Shown: in pieces, positions 3,590 to 49,692 of the stretch
Layout of the letters: every line of letters begins with the position of its first letter
How positions within the stretch are numbered: the first letter of the stretch is position 1
Assembly (NCBI GenBank): GCA_958295515.1
Contig: CATQGW010000001.1
Location: forward strand, 1,006,658-1,070,657
Reading direction: 5' to 3'
Length of the DNA stretch: 64,000 nt
Source of the DNA: an uncultured Dehalococcoidia bacterium
GTDB taxonomy: Bacteria > Chloroflexota > Dehalococcoidia > Bin125
Translations under genes and position numbers: made by a program
The notes under the pieces: generated by a model
Told to the model about the DNA's origin: nothing
What the model saw: only the letters and a program-made list of their open reading frames with translations
Database searches by the model: none

Positions 3590-4560
3590 TCGTTTTCGTC
3601 ATTCCCGCGAACGCGGGAATCTCGTGGCGTGGCTTCGGAGGTTGGGCGGGGGAGATTCCCGCTTTCGCGGGAATGACGGAAAGGGGGCTTGGGAGGCGGC
3701 ACGGCGAGATACCCGCGGCAAGCGCGGGTATGACGGATCTGTGGGCGCGGGGGTGGCGGATCTATAGGCGCGGGTGTGACGGAAAGGGGGGCAGGGCTTG
3801 GGAGGTTGCGCGGGGGGATTCCCGCGTTCGCGGGAATGACGGAAAGGAGGGGGCGGGAATGGTCGCCAAAGGGATGTGGGGATGGCGGAAGTGAGGGGGC
3901 CGGTGTGCGACGGAGGTGGGGGTGGGGCTTGGAGGGTGGGACGGCGAGATACCCGCGGCGGGGCGCGGGTATGACGGATCTATGGGTGCGGGGATGACGG
4001 AAGAGGGGGTGCGGGGTGACGGAAGTGAGAGCGGGGCTTGGGAGGTTGTGCGGGGGAGATTCCCGCTTTCGCGGGAATGACGGAATTTTGGGAGCGCTGG
4101 AGACGGTGCGGGGGCTTGGTGCTGCTCACGGCGAGATACCCGCGGCAAGCGCGGGTATGACGGATCTGTGGGTGCGGGTGTGACGGATCTACGGGGGCGG
4201 GGATGGCGGAGGTGAGGGGGCAGGTGTGCGGCGGAGGTGGGGGTGGGGCTTGGAGGGTTGGGCGGGGGGGATTCCCGCTTTCGCGGGAATGACGGAATTT
4301 TGGGAGCGCTGGAGACGGCGCGGGGGCTTGGTGCTGCTCACGGCGAGATACCCGCGGCAAGCGCGGGTATGACGGATCTATGGGCGCGGGTGTGACGGAT
4401 CTACGGGGGCGGGGATGACGGAAGTGAGGGGGCGGGTGTGTGGCGGAGGTGGGGGTGGGGCTTGGAGGGTTGGACGGCGAGATACCCGCGGCGGGGCGCG
4501 GGTATGACGGATCTATGGGGGCGGGTATGACGGAAGAGGGGCGCGGGAGTGACGGAAGAG
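3590..4560. repeat. Tandem array (~210-bp period, 4-5 units) of composite hairpin elements, type A plus type B (GATTCCCGCKTTCGCGGGAATGACGG).
   Basis: The block 4060-4270 is repeated almost exactly at 4270-4480. Each unit contains one ATTCCCGC/GCGGGAAT hairpin, one ATACCCGCG/CGCGGGTAT hairpin and G-rich spacers. The ORFs the track predicts here (3776..3997, 3980..4360 and others) are periodic artefacts. Confidence 0.85.
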
Positions 4561-15626: not shown

Positions 15627-17306
15627 ATGCGACTGTCCGGCGCTGAAATCCTGATGGAATGCCTTCGCGCGGAGGGGGTTGATGTCTTCTTCGGCTACCC
15701 CGGCGGGGTGGTGCTGCCGCTGTACCACAAGCTGGGCGCGTATCCGGATGTGAAGCACGTGCTGGTGCGGCATGAGCAGGCGGCGGCGCACGCGGCGGAC
15801 GGCTACGCGCGGGTTTCGGGGCGCACCGGCGTTTGCCTGGCGACCTCGGGACCGGGCGCGACCAACCTGGTGACCGGGATCACGACGGCGCACATGGATT
15901 CGGTGCCGATTGTGGTGATCACCGGCAACGTGGCGCGGGACCTGATTGGTCGGGACGGCTTCCAGGAGGCGGACATCACGGGGATCACGCTGCCGATCAC
16001 GAAGCACAACTATCTGCTGATGCGGGCGAGCGAGATCGCGCAGGCGGTGAAGGAGGCGTTCCACATCGCTTCGACGGGGCGCAAGGGGCCGGTGTTGGTG
16101 GATATCCCCAAGGATGTGTTCATCGAGGAGGCCGATTGGGACGGGTATCCGACCGATGTGAGCCTGCGCGGGTATCCGATTATGGATATCCCGCGCGACG
16201 ATGAGGTGGCGGTGGCGGCGGATGTGATCAACAGCGCCAAGAAGCCGATCATCATCGCGGGGCACGGGGTGGTGCAGTCGGGCGCGGCCGCGGAGCTGCG
16301 CCAGCTGGCGGAGCTGGCCGATGTGCCGGTGCTGACTACGTTGCTGGGCATCTCGGGCTTCCCCGATGATCACCCGCTGTCCTTCGGCTTTCTCGGCATG
16401 CATGGGCACTTCTACGCGAATATGGCGGCGGACCGTGCGGATGTGGTGATTGGGATTGGGATGCGCTTCGACGACCGCGCGATGGGGCGGTTCAAGGACT
16501 TCAACCCGACGGCGCGGATCGTGCATATCGACATCGACCCGGCCGAGATCGGCAAGAATTTCCACACGCATGCGCCGGTCAACGGGGATGTGCGGGAGAC
16601 GCTGCTGCGTCTGCTGCCGCGGCTCGAACCGGTCTCGCACCCGCAGTGGCGGGCCGAGATTGAGGCGATTAAGGCGGATCACCCGACCAACTACATCGAC
16701 GAGGGCACTGCGGTGACCGGTCCCTGGCTGGTGCAGGCGCTGGCGGAGGAGACGGAAGGGCAAGCGACGGTGGTGACCGGGGTTGGCCAGCACCAGATGT
16801 GGGGGGCGCAGTATTACCCGTACACGCGGCCGCGGCAGTGGGTGACCTCGGGCGGGTTGGGCACGATGGGTTATGAGGTGCCGGCGGCGATGGGGGCGCA
16901 GTTCGCGCAGCAGGAGCCGGTCTGGTCGATCTGCGGCGACGGCGGGTTCCAGATGACCTCGCAGGAGCTGCAGACGGTGCGGGAGCACGACCTGCCGGTG
17001 CGCTTTGCAATCTTCAACAACGGCTTCCTCGGTATGGTGCGGCAGTGGCAGGAGCTGTTCTACGAGAACAACTACCACTCGGTGGATATCGGCCAGCCGG
17101 ACTTCGTGAAGCTGGCGGAGGCCTACGGCATCCCCGGGCTGCGGGCGACGACGCGCGCGGAGGCGCGGCAGGTGATTCGGGAGGCGGAGGCGCTCGATGG
17201 GCCGGTCGTGATCGACTTCCAGCTGGAGCCGGAAGAGAATGTGTGGCCGATGGTGCCCGCGGGGGCGGCGCTCTCGGAGACGATCGAATCCGCTGAAGAC
17301 CTGTAG
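15627..17306 (+). CDS. ilvB: Acetolactate synthase large subunit.
   Basis: 559 aa with a ThDP-enzyme fold (GYPGG, ...GMHG..., GLGTMGY). Confidence 0.9.
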   Translation: MRLSGAEILMECLRAEGVDVFFGYPGGVVLPLYHKLGAYPDVKHVLVRHEQAAAHAADGYARVSGRTGVCLATSGPGATNLVTGITTAHMDSVPIVVITGNVARDLIGRDGFQEADITGITLPITKHNYLLMRASEIAQAVKEAFHIASTGRKGPVLVDIPKDVFIEEADWDGYPTDVSLRGYPIMDIPRDDEVAVAADVINSAKKPIIIAGHGVVQSGAAAELRQLAELADVPVLTTLLGISGFPDDHPLSFGFLGMHGHFYANMAADRADVVIGIGMRFDDRAMGRFKDFNPTARIVHIDIDPAEIGKNFHTHAPVNGDVRETLLRLLPRLEPVSHPQWRAEIEAIKADHPTNYIDEGTAVTGPWLVQALAEETEGQATVVTGVGQHQMWGAQYYPYTRPRQWVTSGGLGTMGYEVPAAMGAQFAQQEPVWSICGDGGFQMTSQELQTVREHDLPVRFAIFNNGFLGMVRQWQELFYENNYHSVDIGQPDFVKLAEAYGIPGLRATTRAEARQVIREAEALDGPVVIDFQLEPEENVWPMVPAGAALSETIESAEDL

Positions 17307-17366
17307 GCAGACCTGTCGGCAGACCTATAGGCAGGCTTGTAAGCAGGAAGTGGGGAGCGTATCGAG

Positions 17367-17954
17367 ATGGCTTCGCGCAATACGATTGTCGCGCATGTGG
17401 AGGACCGGCCCGGGGTGCTGGCGCGCGTCGCCTCGCTCTTTCGGCGGCGCGGCTTCAACATTGAGAGTCTGACCGTGGGGCAGTGCGAAGAGCCGGGACT
17501 GAGCCGCATGACGATCGTGGTCGACGGCGATGATCACCAGGTTGATCAGGTTTGCCGGCAGCTGTTCAAGCTGATCGATGTCGTGTCGATCTTCGACATC
17601 ACGTACGAGCCGATGGTGGATCGGGAGTTGGCGCTGATCAAAGTCTCGGCGACCAACTTCAACCGGCGCGAGGTGCTGGATGTGGTGGAGATGTTCCGCG
17701 CCGATGTGGTGGACGTACACAGCGATTCGCTGATCGTGCAGATCCTCGGCGACGAGGGCAAGGTGAACGCCGCGCTGGGGATGTTCCAGCAGTTCGGCGT
17801 GCTGGAGATGGTGCGCACGGGGCGCGTGGCGATGCGTCGCGGGGTGGAGACCTCGAAGCCGCCGCCGGTGAGCGACTCGCAGCAGGCGGCGGCGGCGGTC
17901 CGGGCGATGCTCGGGCGCCGTCCGGAGGGCGTGCTGCCCTTCGCCAGCGACTGA
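17367..17954 (+). CDS. ilvN: Acetolactate synthase small (regulatory, ACT) subunit.
   Basis: N-terminal ACT domain (IVAHVEDRPGVLARVASLFRRRGFNIESL). Confidence 0.85.
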   Translation: MASRNTIVAHVEDRPGVLARVASLFRRRGFNIESLTVGQCEEPGLSRMTIVVDGDDHQVDQVCRQLFKLIDVVSIFDITYEPMVDRELALIKVSATNFNRREVLDVVEMFRADVVDVHSDSLIVQILGDEGKVNAALGMFQQFGVLEMVRTGRVAMRRGVETSKPPPVSDSQQAAAAVRAMLGRRPEGVLPFASD

Positions 17955-18017
17955 ACCCGCAACCGCTGCAACGCAGCGACAACGCGAAACGACCGCGAAG
18001 AACAGAAGGAGAGTCTG

Positions 18018-19022
18018 ATGCCCGCCACGATGTACTACGACGACGATGCCGATCTGGATTTGCTGAAGGGCAAGACGATTGGGGTGGTGGGCTTCGGCTC
18101 GCAGGGCCACGCGCACGCGCTCAACCTGCACGACAGCGGGGTGGACGTGATTGTGGGTCTCTACCCGGGCTCGCGCTCGTGGAACAAGGTGATCGATTCG
18201 GGGCTGCGGGTGGACACGGTGGCGAATGTGGCGGACGCCTCGGACATCATCATGGTGTTGACGCCGGACCACATTCAGAAGCAGATTTACGATCAGCACA
18301 TCGCGCCCTCGATGGTGGAGGGCAAGACGCTGATGTTCGCGCACGGCTTCGCGATTCACTACAACCAGGTCGCGCCGCCGCCGGAGGTGGATGTGACCAT
18401 GATTGCGCCCAAGGGTCCGGGCCATCTGGTGCGGCGGGTCTTCGAGGAAGGCGGCGGGGTGCCGGCGCTGTTGGCGATTTACCAGGACGCCTCGGAGACG
18501 GCGAAGGATGTGGCGCTGGCCTACGCGAAGGGGATCGGGGGCACGCGCGCGGGGGTGCTGGAGACGACATTCCTGGAGGAGACGGAGACGGATTTGTTCG
18601 GCGAGCAGTCGGTGCTCTGCGGCGGCGTGACGTCGCTGATGCAGGCGGCGTTCGAGACGCTCGTGGAGGCCGGCTACCAGCCCGAATCGGCGTACTTTGA
18701 GACGATTCACGAGGTGAAGCTGATCGTGGATTTGATCTACGAAGGCGGCTTCGCCAACATGCGCTACTCGGTGTCGGACACGGCGGAGTACGGCGATCTG
18801 ACGCGCGGGCCGCGGGTGATCGACGCGTCGGTGAAGGACCGGATGCGGCAGCTGCTGAGCGACATTCAGGACGGGACGTTCGCGCGGGAGTGGATCATGG
18901 AGAATCAGACGGGGCGTCCGGGCTTCGACAAGCTGCGCGCGCGCGCGGCGGCGCATCCGAGCGAAGAGGTGGGCGCGGAGCTGCGCGGGATGATGGCCTG
19001 GCTCAACGAGGAAGCGGACTAG
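18018..19022 (+). CDS. ilvC: Ketol-acid reductoisomerase.
   Basis: 334 aa. N-terminal Rossmann motif ([17 protein letters not shown]) plus the KARI C-terminal domain. Confidence 0.9.
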
Positions 19023-19555
19023 TCGGAGACGGCGGCCAGGAGCTCCTCCTCCGTAGGTTGCTCCAACTCGATCAGCGCGGACTGGTACGGGATGGCTTCC
19101 CCGTCATCAGTTCCGATCCATCCGGGATGCTGATGCGAGAGGTCGCTCAGCTCGCGCGCGCTCAGGTCTTGCGCCTCGCGGAGGATTTGCTCGACGACAG
19201 CGATCTCGACTCCACTGAAGGGCGAAAGGTCCGGCCGCTCGAGCGGCACCGGGCGCTGCTGCACGTAGCCGAAGCGGTCGCGATGGCGGATGATCAACCG
19301 CTGAGCATCGGCCAGGCTGGTGAGCCGCTGCTCCAGACTGGCGGCCATAGGGCCGTGCTTGCGATGCACGTACGTTGTGCCCGTGATCGATTCGCCGGTG
19401 AGGCGGTAATGTTGAAAGTCGCTCATCCAGAGCAACTTGTGCAGCTTGGTCTTGCCGTAGGTCTCGCTGGCGAGCTCACGCTCGGAGATGTAGAGAATCA
19501 ACTCATCGAGCTTGGCGGCGTTGAGAGTCGGTTGAGGTGCGGCGGCCATCGACAT
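19019..19555 (-). CDS. Panacea-domain (DUF4065, SocA-like) antitoxin-type protein.
   Basis: 178 aa. The core [35 protein letters not shown] resembles the Panacea/DUF4065 signature. Local GC (~62%) is lower than the flanks. Confidence 0.55.
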
Positions 19556-19641
19556 CGTCCCTCGGCGGTTTGGTCACTGACGTTGTAGGGCTACGACATA
19601 GCTTAGCGTTGCCTGATGCGGCTTGCGTGTAATGTGGGGCT

Positions 19642-19908
19642 GTGCCGAGTCAATTTGAAGTCAACGCCGACGATGCGATGTTTCGTGCAGCGTGCGAACG
19701 GCTTGCGCTGACGCGCCGGCAGATCGACGAGATCGCGCAGGCGGTGTATCTGCATGCGCGTGCCGGTACTCCGCCGCCCAACCCTGTTGCCATCGCTCTG
19801 CCCGGGATGCGCCCACACGCCGTTTCCAGCCCGCGGCTGTGGGTCTCGTTCGAGATCCGCGGGAGCCAGATCGTGTTGCGGGGGCTGAGCGAACGACCAT
19901 CAGACTGA
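19642..19908 (+). CDS. Small hypothetical protein, divergent from the Panacea gene. The C-terminus is weakly RelE/ParE-like.
   Basis: 88-aa ORF whose C-terminus RLWVSFEIRGSQIVLRGL weakly recalls toxin beta-strand signatures. It is unverified. Confidence 0.3.
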   Translation: MPSQFEVNADDAMFRAACERLALTRRQIDEIAQAVYLHARAGTPPPNPVAIALPGMRPHAVSSPRLWVSFEIRGSQIVLRGLSERPSD

Positions 19909-19911
19909 AGA

Positions 19912-20280
19912 CTAGGGCGCCGGGGCTGTTGCGCCGCAGGGGACGTTGCGGGCGGTGAGGAGTTCGAGCCACTCGCGCTGGGTGTGGTGGCGGAAGGCTT
20001 CGCTGAGGATGCCGGAGAGCGCGTCGGCGTTGGCCAGGCGCGCCTGGTGTGAGGCGAAGCGCGGGTCGTCGGTGATGTCCAGCTGGAATTCGGGCAGGTA
20101 ATCGCCCGTGTCGGCGGGGTGGCGCTCGTGGTGATCCCACTGGTGGTTGGCCAGCGCGAACTCGCCCAGCGCGGAGCGCAGGCGCTGCCAGTCCGTCTCG
20201 CTCTCGATGTCGAGATGCACCCAGCCGTCGGTCGCCCGATACGCCCGCCGCAGCGGGTCCGTGGTCGCCGCCATCGTCAT
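19912..20280 (-). pseudogene. C-terminal remnant (~120 aa) of a family-III CoA-transferase (CaiB/BaiF).
   Basis: It contains DPRFASHQARLAN...EWLELLTARNVPCG, the conserved C-terminal region of CaiB-family enzymes. An in-frame TAG lies 17 codons upstream of the first Met and no N-terminal 270 aa exists. Intact paralogs are present at 21431..23895. Confidence 0.6.
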
Positions 20281-20371
20281 TGCCTCCGGCTCGTCGCGCG
20301 CATGCGCGCAGGTTATCGCCTAGCCTTTGCCCGCCGGGCGGCAGGCTGCCGCTGGGAACAAGGAGTCTGCG

Positions 20372-21391
20372 ATGCGCGCTGTGGTGCTGCGAAACATGGA
20401 GCTGGTCGTTGATGACATCGCCCAACCGGAACCTGCGGAGGGCGAGGCGCTGGTGAAGAGCCTGGCCTGCGGCATCTGCGGCTCGGACCTGCACTTCGTC
20501 AAGTTCGGGCAGGAGATGGTGACGGCGTCTCAGTCGGAGGGGCGCTCGCGCTTTGCGCCCGATCTCGAGCGCGACATCGTGATGGGCCACGAGTTCTGCT
20601 GCGAAGTGGTGGCCTACGGACCGAACACGCCGGAGACGGTGCCGGTCGGGGAGCGCTGCGTCTCCGTGCCCAGCCGCGGCGCGTATTCCAACGAGTACCC
20701 GGGCGGCTACAGCGAGTACATGGTGCTCGACGCCTCAATGCTGCTGCCGGTGGCGGATTCGCTGGCGACGCACCACGCGGCGGTGACCGAGCCGATGGCG
20801 GTGGGTCTGCACGCGGTTCGGGCGGGCGCGTTCAGCGACGAGCCGGCGGTGATCTACGGCTGCGGTCCGGTCGGTCTGGCGACGATTGCGGCGCTCAAGA
20901 TCGATGGGGTGGGGCCGATCGTGGCGGCCGATTTTTCGCGGAAGCGCCGGGAGTTGGCGGGGATGATGGGGGCGGACAGCGTGGTGGATCCGCGCGAGTT
21001 GTCGCCGGTGACGGCGCTGGAGCGGCTGGGCTCGTTCTCGGAGACGGTGCTGTTCGACGCGGTCGGGGTGCCGGGGATGCTGTCGCTGCTGTCGCGCGAG
21101 GCGCCTGATCGGGGCGCGCGGATTGTGGTGGTGGGCGTCTGCATGCAGTCGGACACGATTCAGCCGATGGCGGCGATCGAGAAGGAGTTGAGCTACAAGT
21201 TCGTGCTCGGCTACACGCCCGAGGAGTTTGAGGAGAGCCTGCGTGCGCTGGAGAACGGGCTGATCGATGCTTCGCAGTTCGTCAGCGGCGCGGTTGGCCT
21301 CGATGATGTCGGGGCGGCCTTCGAGACGCTCGCCGACCCTGAGGAGCACTGCAAAATCATGGTCACGCCGCACGAGGAGCACTCGCTCTGA
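20372..21391 (+). CDS. Zn-dependent alcohol / threonine-type dehydrogenase (MDR family).
   Basis: An AAGGAG RBS lies 6 nt before the ATG at 20372. Motifs GICGSDLH and GHEFCCEVV are present. Confidence 0.8.
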   Translation: MRAVVLRNMELVVDDIAQPEPAEGEALVKSLACGICGSDLHFVKFGQEMVTASQSEGRSRFAPDLERDIVMGHEFCCEVVAYGPNTPETVPVGERCVSVPSRGAYSNEYPGGYSEYMVLDASMLLPVADSLATHHAAVTEPMAVGLHAVRAGAFSDEPAVIYGCGPVGLATIAALKIDGVGPIVAADFSRKRRELAGMMGADSVVDPRELSPVTALERLGSFSETVLFDAVGVPGMLSLLSREAPDRGARIVVVGVCMQSDTIQPMAAIEKELSYKFVLGYTPEEFEESLRALENGLIDASQFVSGAVGLDDVGAAFETLADPEEHCKIMVTPHEEHSL

Positions 21392-21430: not shown

Positions 21431-22648
21431 CTAGCTCAGCGCGCCGGCGGCGGCCAGGTCCGTGATCCGGGCGTCGCTGTAGCCGAGGATTTCTTGGAGG
21501 ATTTGCGTGGTGTGCTGGCCGACCTGTGGGGCGGGCGCGGCGGGCGCGCCGGGGGTGTCGGAGAGCTGGTAGCGCGGGGCTTCGACGATGGTCTGGCCGT
21601 GCAGCGGGTGGGGCAGGCGCAGGAAGTGGTTGCGGTGAGCGAGCTGGGGGTCGTTGGCGGCGTCCTCGCTGGAGGCGAGGGCGTGGGCGGGGACGCCGGC
21701 GGCTTGCAGCGCCTGTTCGGCCTCGGCGGCGGAGCGCTGCTCGCTCCAGGCGGCGATGGCGGCGTCGAGCTCGGCTGAGCGGTCGCGGCGCTGGGGCAGG
21801 GTGAGATTGGGGTCGAGGCCGCTGATCAGTTGGGCGAGGCTGCGCCAGTCGGCGTCGTCGCGGGCGGTGATCGCGATCCAGGCTTCGTCGCGATCGGCGG
21901 GCGGCAGCGAGGGGTAGACGCCGTGCGGCGACATTTGCGGATCGTCGTTGCCGCGCCGTTGCAGCGAGGGGCCGCCGTTGACGTAATCGATCAGCGCGGG
22001 CGCGAGGAGGTGCAGCGTGGCCTCGGCCTGCGCCTGGTCGATATGGACGCCCCGGCCGGTGAGGCGGCGGTGTTCGAGGGCGGCCAGCAGTGCGGTGAGG
22101 GCGAAACGCGGGGCGGGATAGTCGGTGTAGGGCCCGTAGGGGCCGGCGGGTGGTCGGTCGGGCCAGCCGGTGAGGTCGAGCGCGCCGGACATGCCGGCGC
22201 CCTGGGTGCCGAAGCCGGAGACGCCGCGCTCGGGGCCGTATTGGCCGAGCAGGGTGCTGCTGAGCATGATCAGGTCGGGCTTGATTTGGCGCAGGGCGTC
22301 GTAGTGCAGGTCCCACTTTTGGAGCACGCCGGCGGTGAAGGATTCGGACATCACGTCCGCCCAGCGGACGAGGTCGCGGAGCACATCGCGCGCTGCGGGA
22401 ACGCGCAGGTCGAGCGCGATGCCCAGCTTGCCGGCGTTGACGTTGCCGTAGAGGCCGGAGTTTTCGACGCCGGGTTCGTCGGCGTGGAAGGGACCGACGA
22501 TGCGGGCGGTGTCGACGCGGGCGCTGGATTCGACGCGGATCACGGTTGCGCCGAAGTCGGCAAGCGCGCGTCCGACGGTGGGACCGGCGACGATCCAGGA
22601 GAGGTCGAGCACCTTGAGGTCGGCGAGGATCGGGCGTTCGTGCGGCAT
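21431..22648 (-). CDS. CoA-transferase family III (CaiB/BaiF-like).
   Basis: Starts MPHERPILADLKVLDLSWIVAGPTVGRALADFGATVIRVE. Its ATG shares one nucleotide with the upstream gene's TGA (TGATG). Confidence 0.8.
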   Translation of the reverse strand: MPHERPILADLKVLDLSWIVAGPTVGRALADFGATVIRVESSARVDTARIVGPFHADEPGVENSGLYGNVNAGKLGIALDLRVPAARDVLRDLVRWADVMSESFTAGVLQKWDLHYDALRQIKPDLIMLSSTLLGQYGPERGVSGFGTQGAGMSGALDLTGWPDRPPAGPYGPYTDYPAPRFALTALLAALEHRRLTGRGVHIDQAQAEATLHLLAPALIDYVNGGPSLQRRGNDDPQMSPHGVYPSLPPADRDEAWIAITARDDADWRSLAQLISGLDPNLTLPQRRDRSAELDAAIAAWSEQRSAAEAEQALQAAGVPAHALASSEDAANDPQLAHRNHFLRLPHPLHGQTIVEAPRYQLSDTPGAPAAPAPQVGQHTTQILQEILGYSDARITDLAAAGALS

Positions 22649-23895
22649 CAGATAATGCCTCTCTCGCGCAGCGCGGTGAGTTCGTCGGCGCTCAGCCCGA
22701 GTTCGCCCCAGACTTCGTCGTTGTGTTGACCGAGCCGCGGGGGTGGGCGGTCGTCCCAGCGCTGGGGCGCGCCGTCGATGCGAATTTGCAGCGGCGCGGC
22801 GGGCAGGCGCAGGCTGCGGCCGTCGTCGAGCGTGAATTCGCGCCAGAAACCGCGCGCGTCGAGCTGGCGGCTCTCGGCCAGGTCGGCGATGTTCAGGACC
22901 GGCACCAGGAGCAAGTCGTAGGCGATTGAGACGTCCAGCATTTCGCGCTTGGTTTTGCCGCGCACGTGCGCCTGCATGACCTCCTGGATGCGCGGCAGCA
23001 GATCGGGGTCGGCTGCGCCGGCCGCGAGACGGTCCGGATAGGTGACGAAGTTCTCCTCGGCCAGCTCGGCTTCGAGGACGCCCTCATCGATTAGCCAGCG
23101 GACGGCGTGGTTGACGAAGTGCCCGACGGCGGGGCCGGGCGCGAGCGCGAGGACGATCCAGCCGTCTTCGACTTCGCGGGTGCCGCGGAAGCCGACGCCG
23201 CGCGCTTTGACGCCGCCGGCGTAGCGCTCCGGCTCGACGGCGCCGAGCGAATGCGCGAGCACCTGTCCGAGCGTGGCCTGGGCGGCGGAGACCTGGGCGG
23301 AGATATCGACGTGCTGCCCGCGTCCGGTCGCGCGGCGCGCGTGCAGCGCCAGCATTGCGCCGCCCGCGGCGTCGCCGGCGGCGTGCGACCAGGACTGCGG
23401 GACGGAGATGCGCACGGGCGGTCGGTCGTCGTCGCCGCTCATCAGCAGCGGCGTGCCGGCCGCCCAGATGACCAGGTCGGTGGCCTGGTAGCGGGCTTTG
23501 GGGCCGGTTTGGCCGAAGGCGGTGATCGAGGTGTAGATCAGCTGCGGGAAGTCGTCTTTGAGCTGCTGGTAGCCGAGGCCGAGCGCGGCCATCGCGCCGG
23601 GGTCGGCGGATTCGAGCAGGATGTCGGCGCTGTCCAGTAGGCGGCGCAGCAGGGTGCGCCCGTCGGAGTGCTCGATGTCGCAGGTGATGCCGCGCTTGTT
23701 GCGGGTGTAGGCGGTCCAGAAGATGGAGCGCTCGGTTTCGGGCGCGTCGCCGCCGAAGAAGGGCGCGACGCGGCGTCCGCGCGAGCCTGCGGGCGGCTCG
23801 ACCTGGATGACGTCTGCGCCGAGGTCGGCCAGCATCTGTCCGGCGAGCACGCCGCGTTGGTCGGTGAGGTCGAGGACGCGCAGATGGTTGAGCAC
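22648..23895 (-). CDS. CoA-transferase family III (CaiB/BaiF-like).
   Basis: Starts MLNHLRVLDLTDQRGVLAGQMLADLGADVIQVEPP. Confidence 0.8.
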   Translation of the reverse strand: MLNHLRVLDLTDQRGVLAGQMLADLGADVIQVEPPAGSRGRRVAPFFGGDAPETERSIFWTAYTRNKRGITCDIEHSDGRTLLRRLLDSADILLESADPGAMAALGLGYQQLKDDFPQLIYTSITAFGQTGPKARYQATDLVIWAAGTPLLMSGDDDRPPVRISVPQSWSHAAGDAAGGAMLALHARRATGRGQHVDISAQVSAAQATLGQVLAHSLGAVEPERYAGGVKARGVGFRGTREVEDGWIVLALAPGPAVGHFVNHAVRWLIDEGVLEAELAEENFVTYPDRLAAGAADPDLLPRIQEVMQAHVRGKTKREMLDVSIAYDLLLVPVLNIADLAESRQLDARGFWREFTLDDGRSLRLPAAPLQIRIDGAPQRWDDRPPPRLGQHNDEVWGELGLSADELTALRERGII

Positions 23896-23958: not shown

Positions 23959-25188
23959 ATGCCACTGGAAGTCGGACACGACGGCAATCGGGTGATGCTG
24001 CGGGGGGCGCTGCGCCGCTTTGATGAGCTGCGGGTGGTCAGCGCGGCGCTGTTCGACGCGATCGGGCGGCGCGGGCAGCGCGCGGTGACGCTCGATTTCT
24101 CGGCGTGCGAGGAGTTCTCGCCGGCGACGATGTTGCCGCTGCTGCCGGTCGCGGCGGGGTACCGCGAGGTCTCGGGCGCGACGTTCGAGCTGGTGGCGCC
24201 GGAAGACGAGGGGTTGAAGCGGCTGCTGATCGACTCGAATTGGGCGCACTTCATCGATCCTGAGCGGTATGCGATCAATGAGGAGGCCGGTGGGCAGGTT
24301 CCGGCGCAGCGGTTTGGGGCGGAGACGGAGGTGGGAGCGATCGTGGCGGGCGTGATGGAGCTGCTGCTGCCGAGGATGGACGTTGAGCGCGAGGCGCTCG
24401 CGGCGCTGGAATGGTCGATGTATGAGTTGATGGACAATGTGCTCTGCCACGCGGAGTCGCCGACGGGCGGGTTTGCGCAGGCGAGCGTTGATGCGCAGTC
24501 GGGGTGGGTGGAATTCGTTGTGGCGGACGGCGGGATCGGCGTCGCGGAGAGTATGCGCATTCGCGATCACGAGCAGGCGCTGGGGCGGGCGATCGCTGAG
24601 GGCGGGACGCGGGACCGAGCGGCGCACGCGGGCGATGGGCTGTTTGGGGCGTTCCGCGCGGCGACGCTGTCGGGCGGTCAGTTTGAGATCAACTCCGGGT
24701 TCGGGCTGCTCTATGGATCGCGCGAGGGTCCTGAGGAGTACCGGACCGGCAAGCGGCGGATTCGCTATAGCGGCACGGCGGTGCGCTGCGAGGTGGGCGT
24801 CGGCGATGCGGGATTGCTGGGGCGCGCGCTGGCGTTCTGCGATCGGGCGTATGAGCCGTTGGACGAGTCTGCTCAGCGAGGGAGCGGGGCGGGGGAGGTC
24901 GCTCCGTTCTCGATTCGGGAGGAGGCGGCGCAGGATGTCGGCTCGAGATCGGGCGGGCGGCGGGTGCGGGAGCTGGTGGAGGAGCGTTTGCGCCGGGATG
25001 GTGAGGCGGTACTGGACTTTGGCGGTGTTGCGGTGATTTCGAGCGGCTTCGCGGATGAGGTGTTGGGGCGGTTGTTTGCGGGGATGGGTCCGCGCGCGTT
25101 TATGAGTCGGGTTCGGGTGCGTAATGCGAATGTTGTGATCGAGGCTCTGATCGACCGCGCGATCCTACAGCGCACGCGCGCCGGGTAG
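23959..25188 (+). CDS. GHKL-ATPase (HATPase_c)-like protein with a C-terminal STAS-like domain; a putative anti-sigma-type serine kinase or regulator.
   Basis: The central segment EWSMYELMDNVLCHA...GWVEFVVADGGIGV fits the HATPase_c N- and G1-boxes. The C-terminus DFGGVAVISSGFADEVLGRLF is STAS-like. Track ORF 23668 starts upstream in a junk prefix; I chose the ATG at 23959. Confidence 0.4.
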   Translation: MPLEVGHDGNRVMLRGALRRFDELRVVSAALFDAIGRRGQRAVTLDFSACEEFSPATMLPLLPVAAGYREVSGATFELVAPEDEGLKRLLIDSNWAHFIDPERYAINEEAGGQVPAQRFGAETEVGAIVAGVMELLLPRMDVEREALAALEWSMYELMDNVLCHAESPTGGFAQASVDAQSGWVEFVVADGGIGVAESMRIRDHEQALGRAIAEGGTRDRAAHAGDGLFGAFRAATLSGGQFEINSGFGLLYGSREGPEEYRTGKRRIRYSGTAVRCEVGVGDAGLLGRALAFCDRAYEPLDESAQRGSGAGEVAPFSIREEAAQDVGSRSGGRRVRELVEERLRRDGEAVLDFGGVAVISSGFADEVLGRLFAGMGPRAFMSRVRVRNANVVIEALIDRAILQRTRAG

Positions 25189-48859: not shown

Positions 48860-49204
48860 TCACTCTTCGAGCAAGATCGAGACGGACTCGATGAAGTCCA
48901 TGTCGTCGTCGGCATGCGGACTTTCGTTGATTGCCTTCGCCTGCCGCCGCATTTCCTCGGCGAAATGCGGCGAGCTCGGGTCCGGCGTCCGGACCAGCTC
49001 GGGATGCATCGCGCGCTCGCGCGTCTGACCGCAGTCAGGGCAGTCCGCGATTTCTTGCGCCCGGCGGCGCGCCTCGGCAATGAATTCAGGGTCACTCGTG
49101 TCCGGCAGCCAGAGCACGACAGGCACCAGCCCCTGCGCGCGCATCTCCTTGTGCTCTTCGCTCTCCGGGTCAAGCGCTGTGTAGGGATCGCGTGCTGCCG
49201 GCAT
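48860..49204 (-). CDS. DUF3018-like (MazE-type) antitoxin homolog, second copy.
   Basis: Contains ...MRAQGLVPVVLWLPDTSDPEFIAEARRRAQEIA...DMDFIESVS, similar to the 49702..49926 product. ~58% GC. Confidence 0.45.
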   Translation of the reverse strand: MPAARDPYTALDPESEEHKEMRAQGLVPVVLWLPDTSDPEFIAEARRRAQEIADCPDCGQTRERAMHPELVRTPDPSSPHFAEEMRRQAKAINESPHADDDMDFIESVSILLEE

Positions 49205-49278
49205 TTGGGCTCCTCGCTTCCTCCACGATAGCGCGCCGAGTCTCGCTTAGCGCGCCTGGCCAATCGGGCGCTGCCCAA

Positions 49279-49692
49279 TCAAGTCACATTGGGCGAAACG
49301 CCTCCGGAGGTCATGAATTCGATCAGGCGCAAGTAGAATTCATCCATGATTGTTTGGTCAAGCGTACCTATCCGTGTTCTGAGACTTTCTTTTTGTACTG
49401 TGGTGACTTTGTCGACCATCAGCCGAGATGGTTTGTCCAGTCCGTTGACTTCATCGGGTTCCACCAAAATGCGGTAAAATGCCTGTTCTTCGTTCGTTGT
49501 GAATATGCAAACGGTGACTGAATCCAAACCGCCGGCTTTCACCATGTCCTGCACGACAACGGCGGGGCGTGGCTTGCTTCTCACATAGGCTTGTTCGTCG
49601 TCTTGGACGATCCAGATCGTCCCAAGCTCCAGCTTCGGCTCGCTTGTGGTGCGGGTCCGCTCAATATTCTGGTCGTGCTCGCGTCCGGGCAT
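49279..49692 (-). CDS. mazF: MazF/PemK-family toxin (mRNA interferase).
   Basis: Contains GTIWIVQDDEQAYVRSKPRPAVVVQ...VTVCIFTTNEEQ...LMVDKVTTVQKESL. Confidence 0.7.
   Translation of the reverse strand: MPGREHDQNIERTRTTSEPKLELGTIWIVQDDEQAYVRSKPRPAVVVQDMVKAGGLDSVTVCIFTTNEEQAFYRILVEPDEVNGLDKPSRLMVDKVTTVQKESLRTRIGTLDQTIMDEFYLRLIEFMTSGGVSPNVT

Follow-up and report, generated by a model that had tools for sequence, protein, structure and literature searches.

A head-to-head Panacea-domain gene pair exchanged as one cassette beside ilvC in uncultured Dehalococcoidia, a putative toxin–antitoxin module

What kind of element occupies the short interval between the ketol-acid reductoisomerase gene ilvC and a Zn-dependent alcohol dehydrogenase (ADH) gene in the genome of an uncultured Dehalococcoidia bacterium? 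The question arises from a 64,000-nucleotide stretch of contig CATQGW010000001.1 (assembly GCA_958295515.1), which is called the window throughout and whose positions are used for coordinates unless a related locus is named. An earlier prediction, made from the letters of this stretch alone (hereafter the original prediction), had placed there a low-GC island made up of a Panacea-domain (DUF4065) gene, a divergent 88-amino-acid (aa) open reading frame (ORF) that could be its toxin partner, and the last part of a CoA-transferase gene that the island was thought to have largely deleted. The Panacea gene does lie between ilvC on one side and a Zn-dependent ADH on the other. The features described in the original prediction are real, and its interpretation is borne out in part. 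Together with the small ORF the Panacea gene forms one evolutionary unit, a hypervariable cassette whose site is fixed, bounded on its two sides by the stop codons of ilvC and the CoA-transferase-like gene. Its alleles are deeply diverged and are swapped by recombination that runs through the conserved flanks. The two genes very probably make up a functional two-gene module, and on balance we read positions 19019–19908 as a head-to-head toxin–antitoxin (TA) system resembling the PanAT family.

The Panacea-domain gene (PanA) is encoded on the minus strand at 19019–19555. Its stop codon overlaps that of ilvC (18018–19022, plus strand) in the palindrome CTAG (19019–19022), the two genes being convergent, and ilvC forms the left flank and cassette border in all ilvC-linked loci. 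The 178-aa ORF, which contains the 16-residue stretch quoted in the original prediction, was searched with profile hidden Markov models (HMMs) and matched PF13274 (SocA_Panacea) above the curated threshold (E = 1.4e-16, 61.9 bits, cut-off 25.7), with residues 38–146 aligned to profile positions 1–112 of 113. Gly-68 and Pro-69 of the GP(V) motif do not vary among 17 homologs; its third residue is Met, Phe, Val, Ile, or Ala. Values of ω (the ratio of nonsynonymous to synonymous substitution rates) between 0.06 and 0.17 show that the gene is under purifying selection. Translation from the first ATG gives 178 aa; the true start is likely ATG 19549 (176 aa, MAAAPQ...), with a Shine–Dalgarno (SD) sequence GAGGGA at 19558–19563, and the start is aligned with those of relatives. 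PanA is a stand-alone Panacea-domain protein, a putative antitoxin or sensor. In one sublineage (L005–L007, L020, and L022; e.g. L007 5192–5680), a tandem second Panacea paralog of 162–170 aa is situated between PanA and ilvC, without a small ORF of its own.

The small ORF occupies 19642–19908 on the plus strand, 86 bp from the Panacea ORF, and is divergent from it as the original prediction had described. Homologous loci were collected from Panacea-protein homologs and by scanning one genome per species, which put the window among metagenome-assembled genomes of high-GC Dehalococcoidia, and a positional equivalent of the small ORF was found in every locus. Orthologs of the window type (group A) share 64–68% aa identity with the frame kept open, at ω values of 0.10–0.25 and with saturated synonymous divergence (dS); across all comparisons ω ranges from 0.10 to 0.31, again indicating purifying selection. 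More distant genomes carry a 90–112-aa ORF in the same place and orientation (group B). This family is coherent (pairwise E values of 1e-5 to 1e-23), and its HMM matches every remaining ilvC-linked locus. In public data, group B genes have either been missed by gene callers or been assigned to the wrong strand, and none of seven sequences looked up in a 15-billion-protein collection was present (0/7). At L008–L011 (e.g. L009 463–717, plus strand), the public annotation has an 84-aa ORF that lies upstream of PanA and runs in its direction; this co-directional candidate was rejected, the conserved frame being a 92-aa ORF on the opposite strand.

Database searches returned little for the small protein. 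No match was obtained for 12 small ORFs in Pfam (E up to 10) or for the small ORF in NCBIfam and PADLOC; PHROGs gave a single chance-level match for the 88-aa ORF (E = 0.27), and a small-ORF profile found nothing among PDB sequences. Exhaustive HMMER searching of 1.84 billion representatives recovered one true relative (P0017) plus low-complexity noise, and a word-indexed search for the 88-aa ORF returned only the truncated call of the window itself.

The two genes share a divergent control region of 86 bp (19556–19641) that holds candidate promoters for both. The spacer measures 45–87 bp in relatives and is poorly conserved apart from one feature: a −10-like hexamer, TAATGT (19630–19635, plus strand), stands exactly 6 nt before the GTG start of the small ORF, and 11 of 14 related loci, with both cassette types represented, have the pattern TAnnnT-N6-start at their annotated start. 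At a 12th locus (L019), the hexamer precedes in the same way an in-frame ATG 18 nt downstream of the annotated start. From this constant spacing we infer that the box is a leaderless-type promoter of the small ORF, unlike PanA, which has an SD-bearing leader. Candidate −10 boxes for PanA, TAAGCT and TATGTC, are located at 19595–19605 on the minus strand. A scan of 18900–20450 for consensus sigma-70 promoters and terminators identified no sites, and the repeat search of the spacer yielded only two 9-nt inverted repeats, which were judged to be due to chance.

How old is this arrangement, and is it inherited as a unit? The order ilvBNC, PanA, small ORF, ~120-aa CoA-transferase-like gene, and ADH recurs in at least 13 species-level Dehalococcoidia genomes, with PanA identities of 49–98% across syntenic loci. 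The arrangement must accordingly be an old one that has been passed on vertically at a single chromosomal site; it is no recent island. The head-to-head orientation of PanA and the small ORF holds for all ilvC-linked loci as well as for L026. The types of the two genes always co-vary, A with A and B with B. The 88-aa ORF is a real, conserved, and co-inherited partner of the Panacea gene; the lack of conservation that the original prediction named as a ground for refuting it was not seen. The pair is found without the CoA-transferase-like gene and the ADH at L002 and L016. No locus has the small ORF without PanA, and at L018 PanA is intact with the small ORF reduced to its last ~27 codons (3887–3985), which is the decay order expected of a toxin and its antitoxin.

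Recombination at the site is clearest in the comparison of L017 with L019. For the ADH, the CoA-transferase-like gene, and ilvC, these two loci share 90–100% nucleotide identity, with proportions of synonymous (pS) and nonsynonymous (pN) differences of 0.14–0.21 and 0.001–0.02, respectively. The whole cassette between them is only 31–73% identical (pS = 0.79 and pN = 0.27 for PanA; pS = 0.75 and pN = 0.48 for the small ORF). Identity breaks exactly at the stop codons of the CoA-transferase-like gene and of ilvC, and 100% identity is regained at the latter. Because synonymous sites of the cassette are saturated and the flanks are young, the alleles must pre-date the split of their hosts and have been exchanged by recombination; judged from these substitution values, the divergence is beyond mere fast protein evolution. 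The PanA tree is likewise incongruent with the ilvNC and ADH trees: L014 stands next to the window in the latter two, whereas its PanA groups with distant B-type alleles. A second head-to-head pair was found at L026 (3630–5460) in genome OZ253456.1, which also holds L017; it is away from ilvC and beside an intact IS1595-family transposase gene, which gives a hint of the way in which the pair moves. Downstream of PanA at L026, a 48-aa ORF matched a partner-family HMM (described below) at E = 0.005; it was treated as a chance match because it lies antisense inside the intact transposase gene.

Base composition agrees with part of the original description of a low-GC mini-island. The cassette (19023–19908) has a GC content of 63.3%, compared with 67.6% for the window, and 8.7% of equal-sized segments are equally low. 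The dip is therefore modest, although it is reproducible, with cassette GC below that of the flanks in 13 of 13 related loci. It is confined to the Panacea gene, the intergenic region, and the small ORF; GC at third codon positions (GC3) is 0.82 for PanA and 0.72 for the small ORF, whereas the CoA-transferase-like gene has a GC3 of 0.92 and a GC content of 71%, typical of host genes, and lies outside the dip. The deepest GC trough of the window is elsewhere, at ~49100–49500, where GC over 300 bp falls to 0.50 (mean 0.676), a far stronger dip than that of the cassette.

For the nature of the small protein, a structural model was built with AlphaFold2 (AF2). The 88-aa protein was predicted, from a 5-sequence alignment, with a mean predicted local distance difference test score (pLDDT) of 79.4 and a predicted template modeling score (pTM) of 0.68, as a β-α-α-β-β-β fold, which is the topology of RelE/ParE toxins. 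Foldseek comparison with the PDB gave no significant match (best E = 0.17; template modeling (TM) scores of 0.35–0.58), and 14 of the first 16 matches, none of them significant, were toxins of the RelE/ParE superfamily. These included YafQ, HP0894/HP0892, HigB2 (TM 0.55–0.58), RelE2, PfiT, ParE2, YoeB, and RelE. Comparison with viral structures was uninformative, and no catalytic residues could be assigned. The small protein is probably a RelE/ParE-like toxin, and the window's version can be described as a putative RelE/ParE-fold partner of group A type.

Remote PanA relatives from other phyla (L027–L094) point in the same direction. Nearly all have a co-directional ORF of ~92 aa immediately downstream, which was detected with a family HMM. 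One member of this family matches ParE_toxin over its full length at E = 0.0018, below threshold, and the family profile matches HigB-2 weakly. When the small ORFs were aligned with this partner family by hhalign, P values of 0.0024–0.034 were obtained (0.0024–0.0028 for the window type), with collinear alignment over 69–82 columns. The link is marginal: it is suggestive of a relationship between the small ORF and the ~92-aa family of the sister clades, but it is not proof.

These features invite comparison with described systems. Dozens of unrelated toxins, MqsR-like and ParE toxins among them, are known as partners of PanA antitoxins, and within PanA clades partners are frequently swapped (PMC8832971); stand-alone Panacea proteins neutralize toxins directly, and the domain has been hypothesized to be a sensor (Ernits et al. 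2023, PMC10440598). The published criteria for TA-like Panacea loci ask for no more than 100 nt between the genes and for conservation in two or more species (Kurata et al. 2022, PMC8832971). The spacer of 86 bp and the occurrence in at least 13 species-level genomes fall within these limits, whereas the co-directional arrangement of PanAT and type II TA operons, which the sister clades have, is absent here. As in PanAT systems, a stand-alone Panacea protein of typical size with a conserved GP motif stands within 100 nt of a small gene that is conserved across species and is fast-evolving or swapped between relatives, and the nearest relatives outside Dehalococcoidia are antitoxin-first operons with a ParE/HigB2-like gene of ~92 aa. 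The differences are that the genes are head-to-head and therefore form no operon, that the putative toxin has what appears to be its own leaderless-type promoter, that the pair occupies one fixed core-genome site with exchangeable alleles whereas PanAT systems are patchily distributed, and that the sequence of the partner fits neither a described PanT cluster nor a Pfam family. Toxins of the RelE/ParE group (HigB2, YafQ, RelE, ParE, and YoeB) resemble the small protein in size (87–98 aa) and in the predicted β1-α1-α2-β2-β3-β4 topology, and are its best structural neighbors; they differ in that the small protein reaches no significant sequence or structure score and has no identified catalytic residues, and in that its partner is a Panacea protein instead of RelB, ParD, or HigA and is not co-transcribed with it. 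SocA of Caulobacter is the founding Panacea protein and acts as a ClpXP adaptor for the toxin SocB. There too, a Panacea-domain protein counteracts a small chromosomal toxin, as is putatively the case here, but SocB is a DnaN-binding toxin of unrelated fold and socAB is an operon.

Assembled into a mechanism, the small protein would inhibit growth as a toxin of the RelE/ParE superfamily, acting as an mRNA interferase or as a gyrase poison, and would be expressed from its own leaderless-type promoter in the shared 86-bp spacer. The Panacea protein would bind and neutralize it directly, as other stand-alone PanA proteins do with their toxins, and may also be the sensor of the trigger. The head-to-head layout could be derived from the canonical PanA-then-toxin operon of the sister clades by inversion of PanA alone. 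The 88-aa ORF is a plausible toxin partner of the Panacea gene, as originally suggested.

Several observations weigh against this assignment. The small protein has no significant match by sequence or structure in Pfam, among PDB sequences, or by Foldseek, and its AF2 model was built from 5 sequences. Homology between the small ORFs of groups A and B is not demonstrable (hhalign E = 0.16), and by HMM-versus-sequence comparison the small ORF is not significantly related to the ~92-aa partner family (E = 1.3–7.9). Type II TA genes are usually coupled in an operon, a coupling lost under divergent transcription, and no DNA-binding domain able to autoregulate the shared spacer is recognizable in PanA. 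Stable vertical synteny at a core-genome site is unusual for a selfish TA system. The case of a truncated toxin at L018 is single and anecdotal. The small ORF of L025 carries a frameshift of 1 nt at codon 75 (~3700) that L024, identical in all else, lacks; this frameshift may stem from an error of assembly and is counted here on the negative side.

The best surviving alternative, which we consider rather unlikely, retains the co-evolving module and removes the toxin. The small protein could serve a Panacea sensor as partner, regulator, or decoy, or be a domesticated and non-toxic protein of RelE/ParE fold, with the divergent layout reflecting a relation between regulator and target. Divergence with a separate promoter for each gene, long fixation of the pair at one core-genome site, and the lack of both assignable catalytic residues and a family match are in keeping with it. 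About half of all Panacea proteins are found outside recognizable TA loci (PMC8832971), and a sensory role has been hypothesized for the domain (PMC10440598). Yet the predicted fold and the best structural neighbors are those of toxins, a ParE/HigB2-like gene of equal size accompanies PanA in the sister clades, it was the small gene and not PanA that was lost at the single decayed locus, and hypervariable allelic cassettes are typical of TA and defense modules.

Much less probable is a system of three genes, in which the neighboring CoA-transferase-like mini-protein would serve the PanA/small-protein module as an accessory factor or metal-binding cofactor protein. The mini-gene (19912–20280, minus strand) is tail-to-tail with the small ORF at a 3-nt gap in the window, and wherever ORF ends are clear it always abuts it in this way, with anything between a gap of 3 nt and an overlap of 9 nt. 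Conservation of the mini-gene extends over the whole lineage, and its protein contains an invariant insert, H46-x-W-D-H-H-E-R-H-P-A-D57, which is absent from canonical family III enzymes; this His/Asp/Glu-rich motif may be a metal-binding site and suggests a specific function. Against a shared system, the mini-gene is outside the recombining cassette (95–98% nucleotide identity between L017 and L019, compared with 31–73% for the cassette) and varies independently of cassette type. The pair persists at L002 and L016, where the mini-gene is missing or degraded, and at L026, where it is missing; the mini-gene is also convergent with the small ORF and not co-transcribed with it.

The same gene had been described in the original prediction as the last ~120 aa of a third CaiB-family CoA-transferase paralog, most of which an inserted low-GC island had deleted; the scenario weighed here is that of a recent insertion that removed the N-terminal two-thirds and left a decapitated pseudogene. 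Some of the observations behind this description were verified. The 122-aa ORF matches part of the PF02515 (CoA_transf_3) profile (E = 2.9e-14, 53.4 bits, cut-off 23.3), there is an in-frame stop 13 codons before its ATG, and the large N-terminal domain with the catalytic aspartate is missing. Two full-length CoA-transferases are located 1–4 kb away, and cassette GC is slightly below that of the surroundings. The match is limited to the small domain, at profile positions ~261–310 of 366 and residues 253–328 of 394 in Rv3272. Since this domain is internal, the protein lacks ~60 residues at the C-terminal end as well as the N-terminal catalytic domain, and is neither the C-terminal end of an enzyme nor one that lacks its N terminus alone. 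AF2 modeling (pLDDT 79) and Foldseek gave a consistent picture: the mini-protein matched the small domain of SUGCT, Rv3272, Frc, and MCR (E = 4e-4; TM scores of 0.60–0.65 normalized to the query and ~0.2 to the target), with a Foldseek probability of 1.00 for SUGCT, Rv3272, and Frc.

Conservation of the mini-gene is likewise that of a separate gene. Translation from the second ATG (20274) gives 120 aa, preceded by its own SD, GGAGG (20283–20287), and only 91–97 bp separate it from the upstream ADH gene. Homologs fall into 37 clusters, 33 of them at 116–130 aa with uniform start and stop, and the alignment has 44 invariant columns, including the His-rich insertion of ~24 aa. Purifying selection is evident (ω = 0.15–0.21), and GC3 is that of host genes. 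The mini-gene is present in every syntenic relative that keeps the ADH, always adjoining it and divergent from it, and in no relative was a full-length CoA-transferase ortholog found at this position. The same ~120-aa form is found in all of these relatives, an outcome that the original prediction had itself named as refuting it; the truncation, if ever there was one, is therefore ancient and unrelated to the cassette. Similarity to the two downstream CoA-transferases, which are not conserved as neighbors in more distant syntenic loci, is not significant (BLASTP E = 0.3–0.4), and the mini-gene is no paralog of that pair. Relaxed selection, variable truncation points, and intact orthologs in relatives, the signs of a pseudogene, were not seen. 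True truncation occurs only at L002 and L016, where a C-terminal remnant of 25–33 aa remains beside the small ORF (L002 5539–5637; L016 3554–3628); at these loci the ADH and its neighbors are replaced by a 117–126-aa membrane protein and proS-nusA-infB, with the breakpoint inside the mini-gene. The deletion by an island is refuted in this form and was given next to no weight. The mini-gene is an intact, conserved, stand-alone small-domain protein gene derived from family III (CaiB/BaiF/Frc) CoA-transferases, sharing sequence and predicted fold with their small domain but differing in the absence of the large Rossmann-like domain (catalytic Asp) and of the C-terminal return segment, in size (120 aa compared with ~360–430 aa), and in its invariant His-rich insert. 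The family seems, as far as seen, to be restricted to these Dehalococcoidia. "Truncated CoA-transferase" is a tempting mis-annotation, now corrected, and the mini-protein is a candidate for a new function.

Finally, the proposal that the 88-aa ORF is no gene but a frame left open by chance in a high-GC genome, for which one may cite several overlapping ORFs of similar length in other frames, its GC3 of only 0.72, and group B versions that are missed or mis-stranded by gene callers and absent from the large protein collection, is effectively refuted by a frame held open at 64–68% identity with low ω and saturated dS, a positional equivalent in every locus, a promoter-like box at a fixed distance from the start, and a compact fold predicted with confidence.

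The surroundings of the cassette are as follows. On the left, ilvB, ilvN, and ilvC (15627–19022, plus strand) were assigned from the ORF listing and a Pfam scan. The right-hand neighbor of the mini-gene is the divergent Zn-dependent ADH gene (20327/20372–21391, plus strand; PF08240 and PF00107; 339 aa from ATG 20372), and the two genes adjoin one another in 16 related loci shown. The two full-length family III CoA-transferases follow on the minus strand (21431–23895; ORF listing and Pfam scan), and just past them is a 409-aa DUF4325 (PF14213) protein encoded at 23959–25188 on the plus strand (L001 362–1591). Rfam searches of the locus and of the whole window, together with tRNA searches, gave no match.

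The locus offers a clean natural example of a two-gene cassette swapped between conserved housekeeping flanks in a poorly studied uncultured lineage. If the toxin–antitoxin reading holds, it would extend the PanAT paradigm to a divergent architecture that is missed by operon-based TA finders and even by gene callers. A further-reaching interpretation, which we put forward as a tentative possibility, is that the site is a fixed chromosomal "allele slot," where ancient head-to-head pairs are kept under balancing or frequency-dependent selection and shuffled by way of ilvC and the mini-gene; the polymorphism would then be of the immunity type, in which phage cues are sensed by the Panacea protein and the leaderless toxin acts as effector. 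Were this true, no earlier locus of the kind would have been described for uncultured Dehalococcoidia of soil or the subsurface, and type II TA systems would be shown to work without operon coupling.

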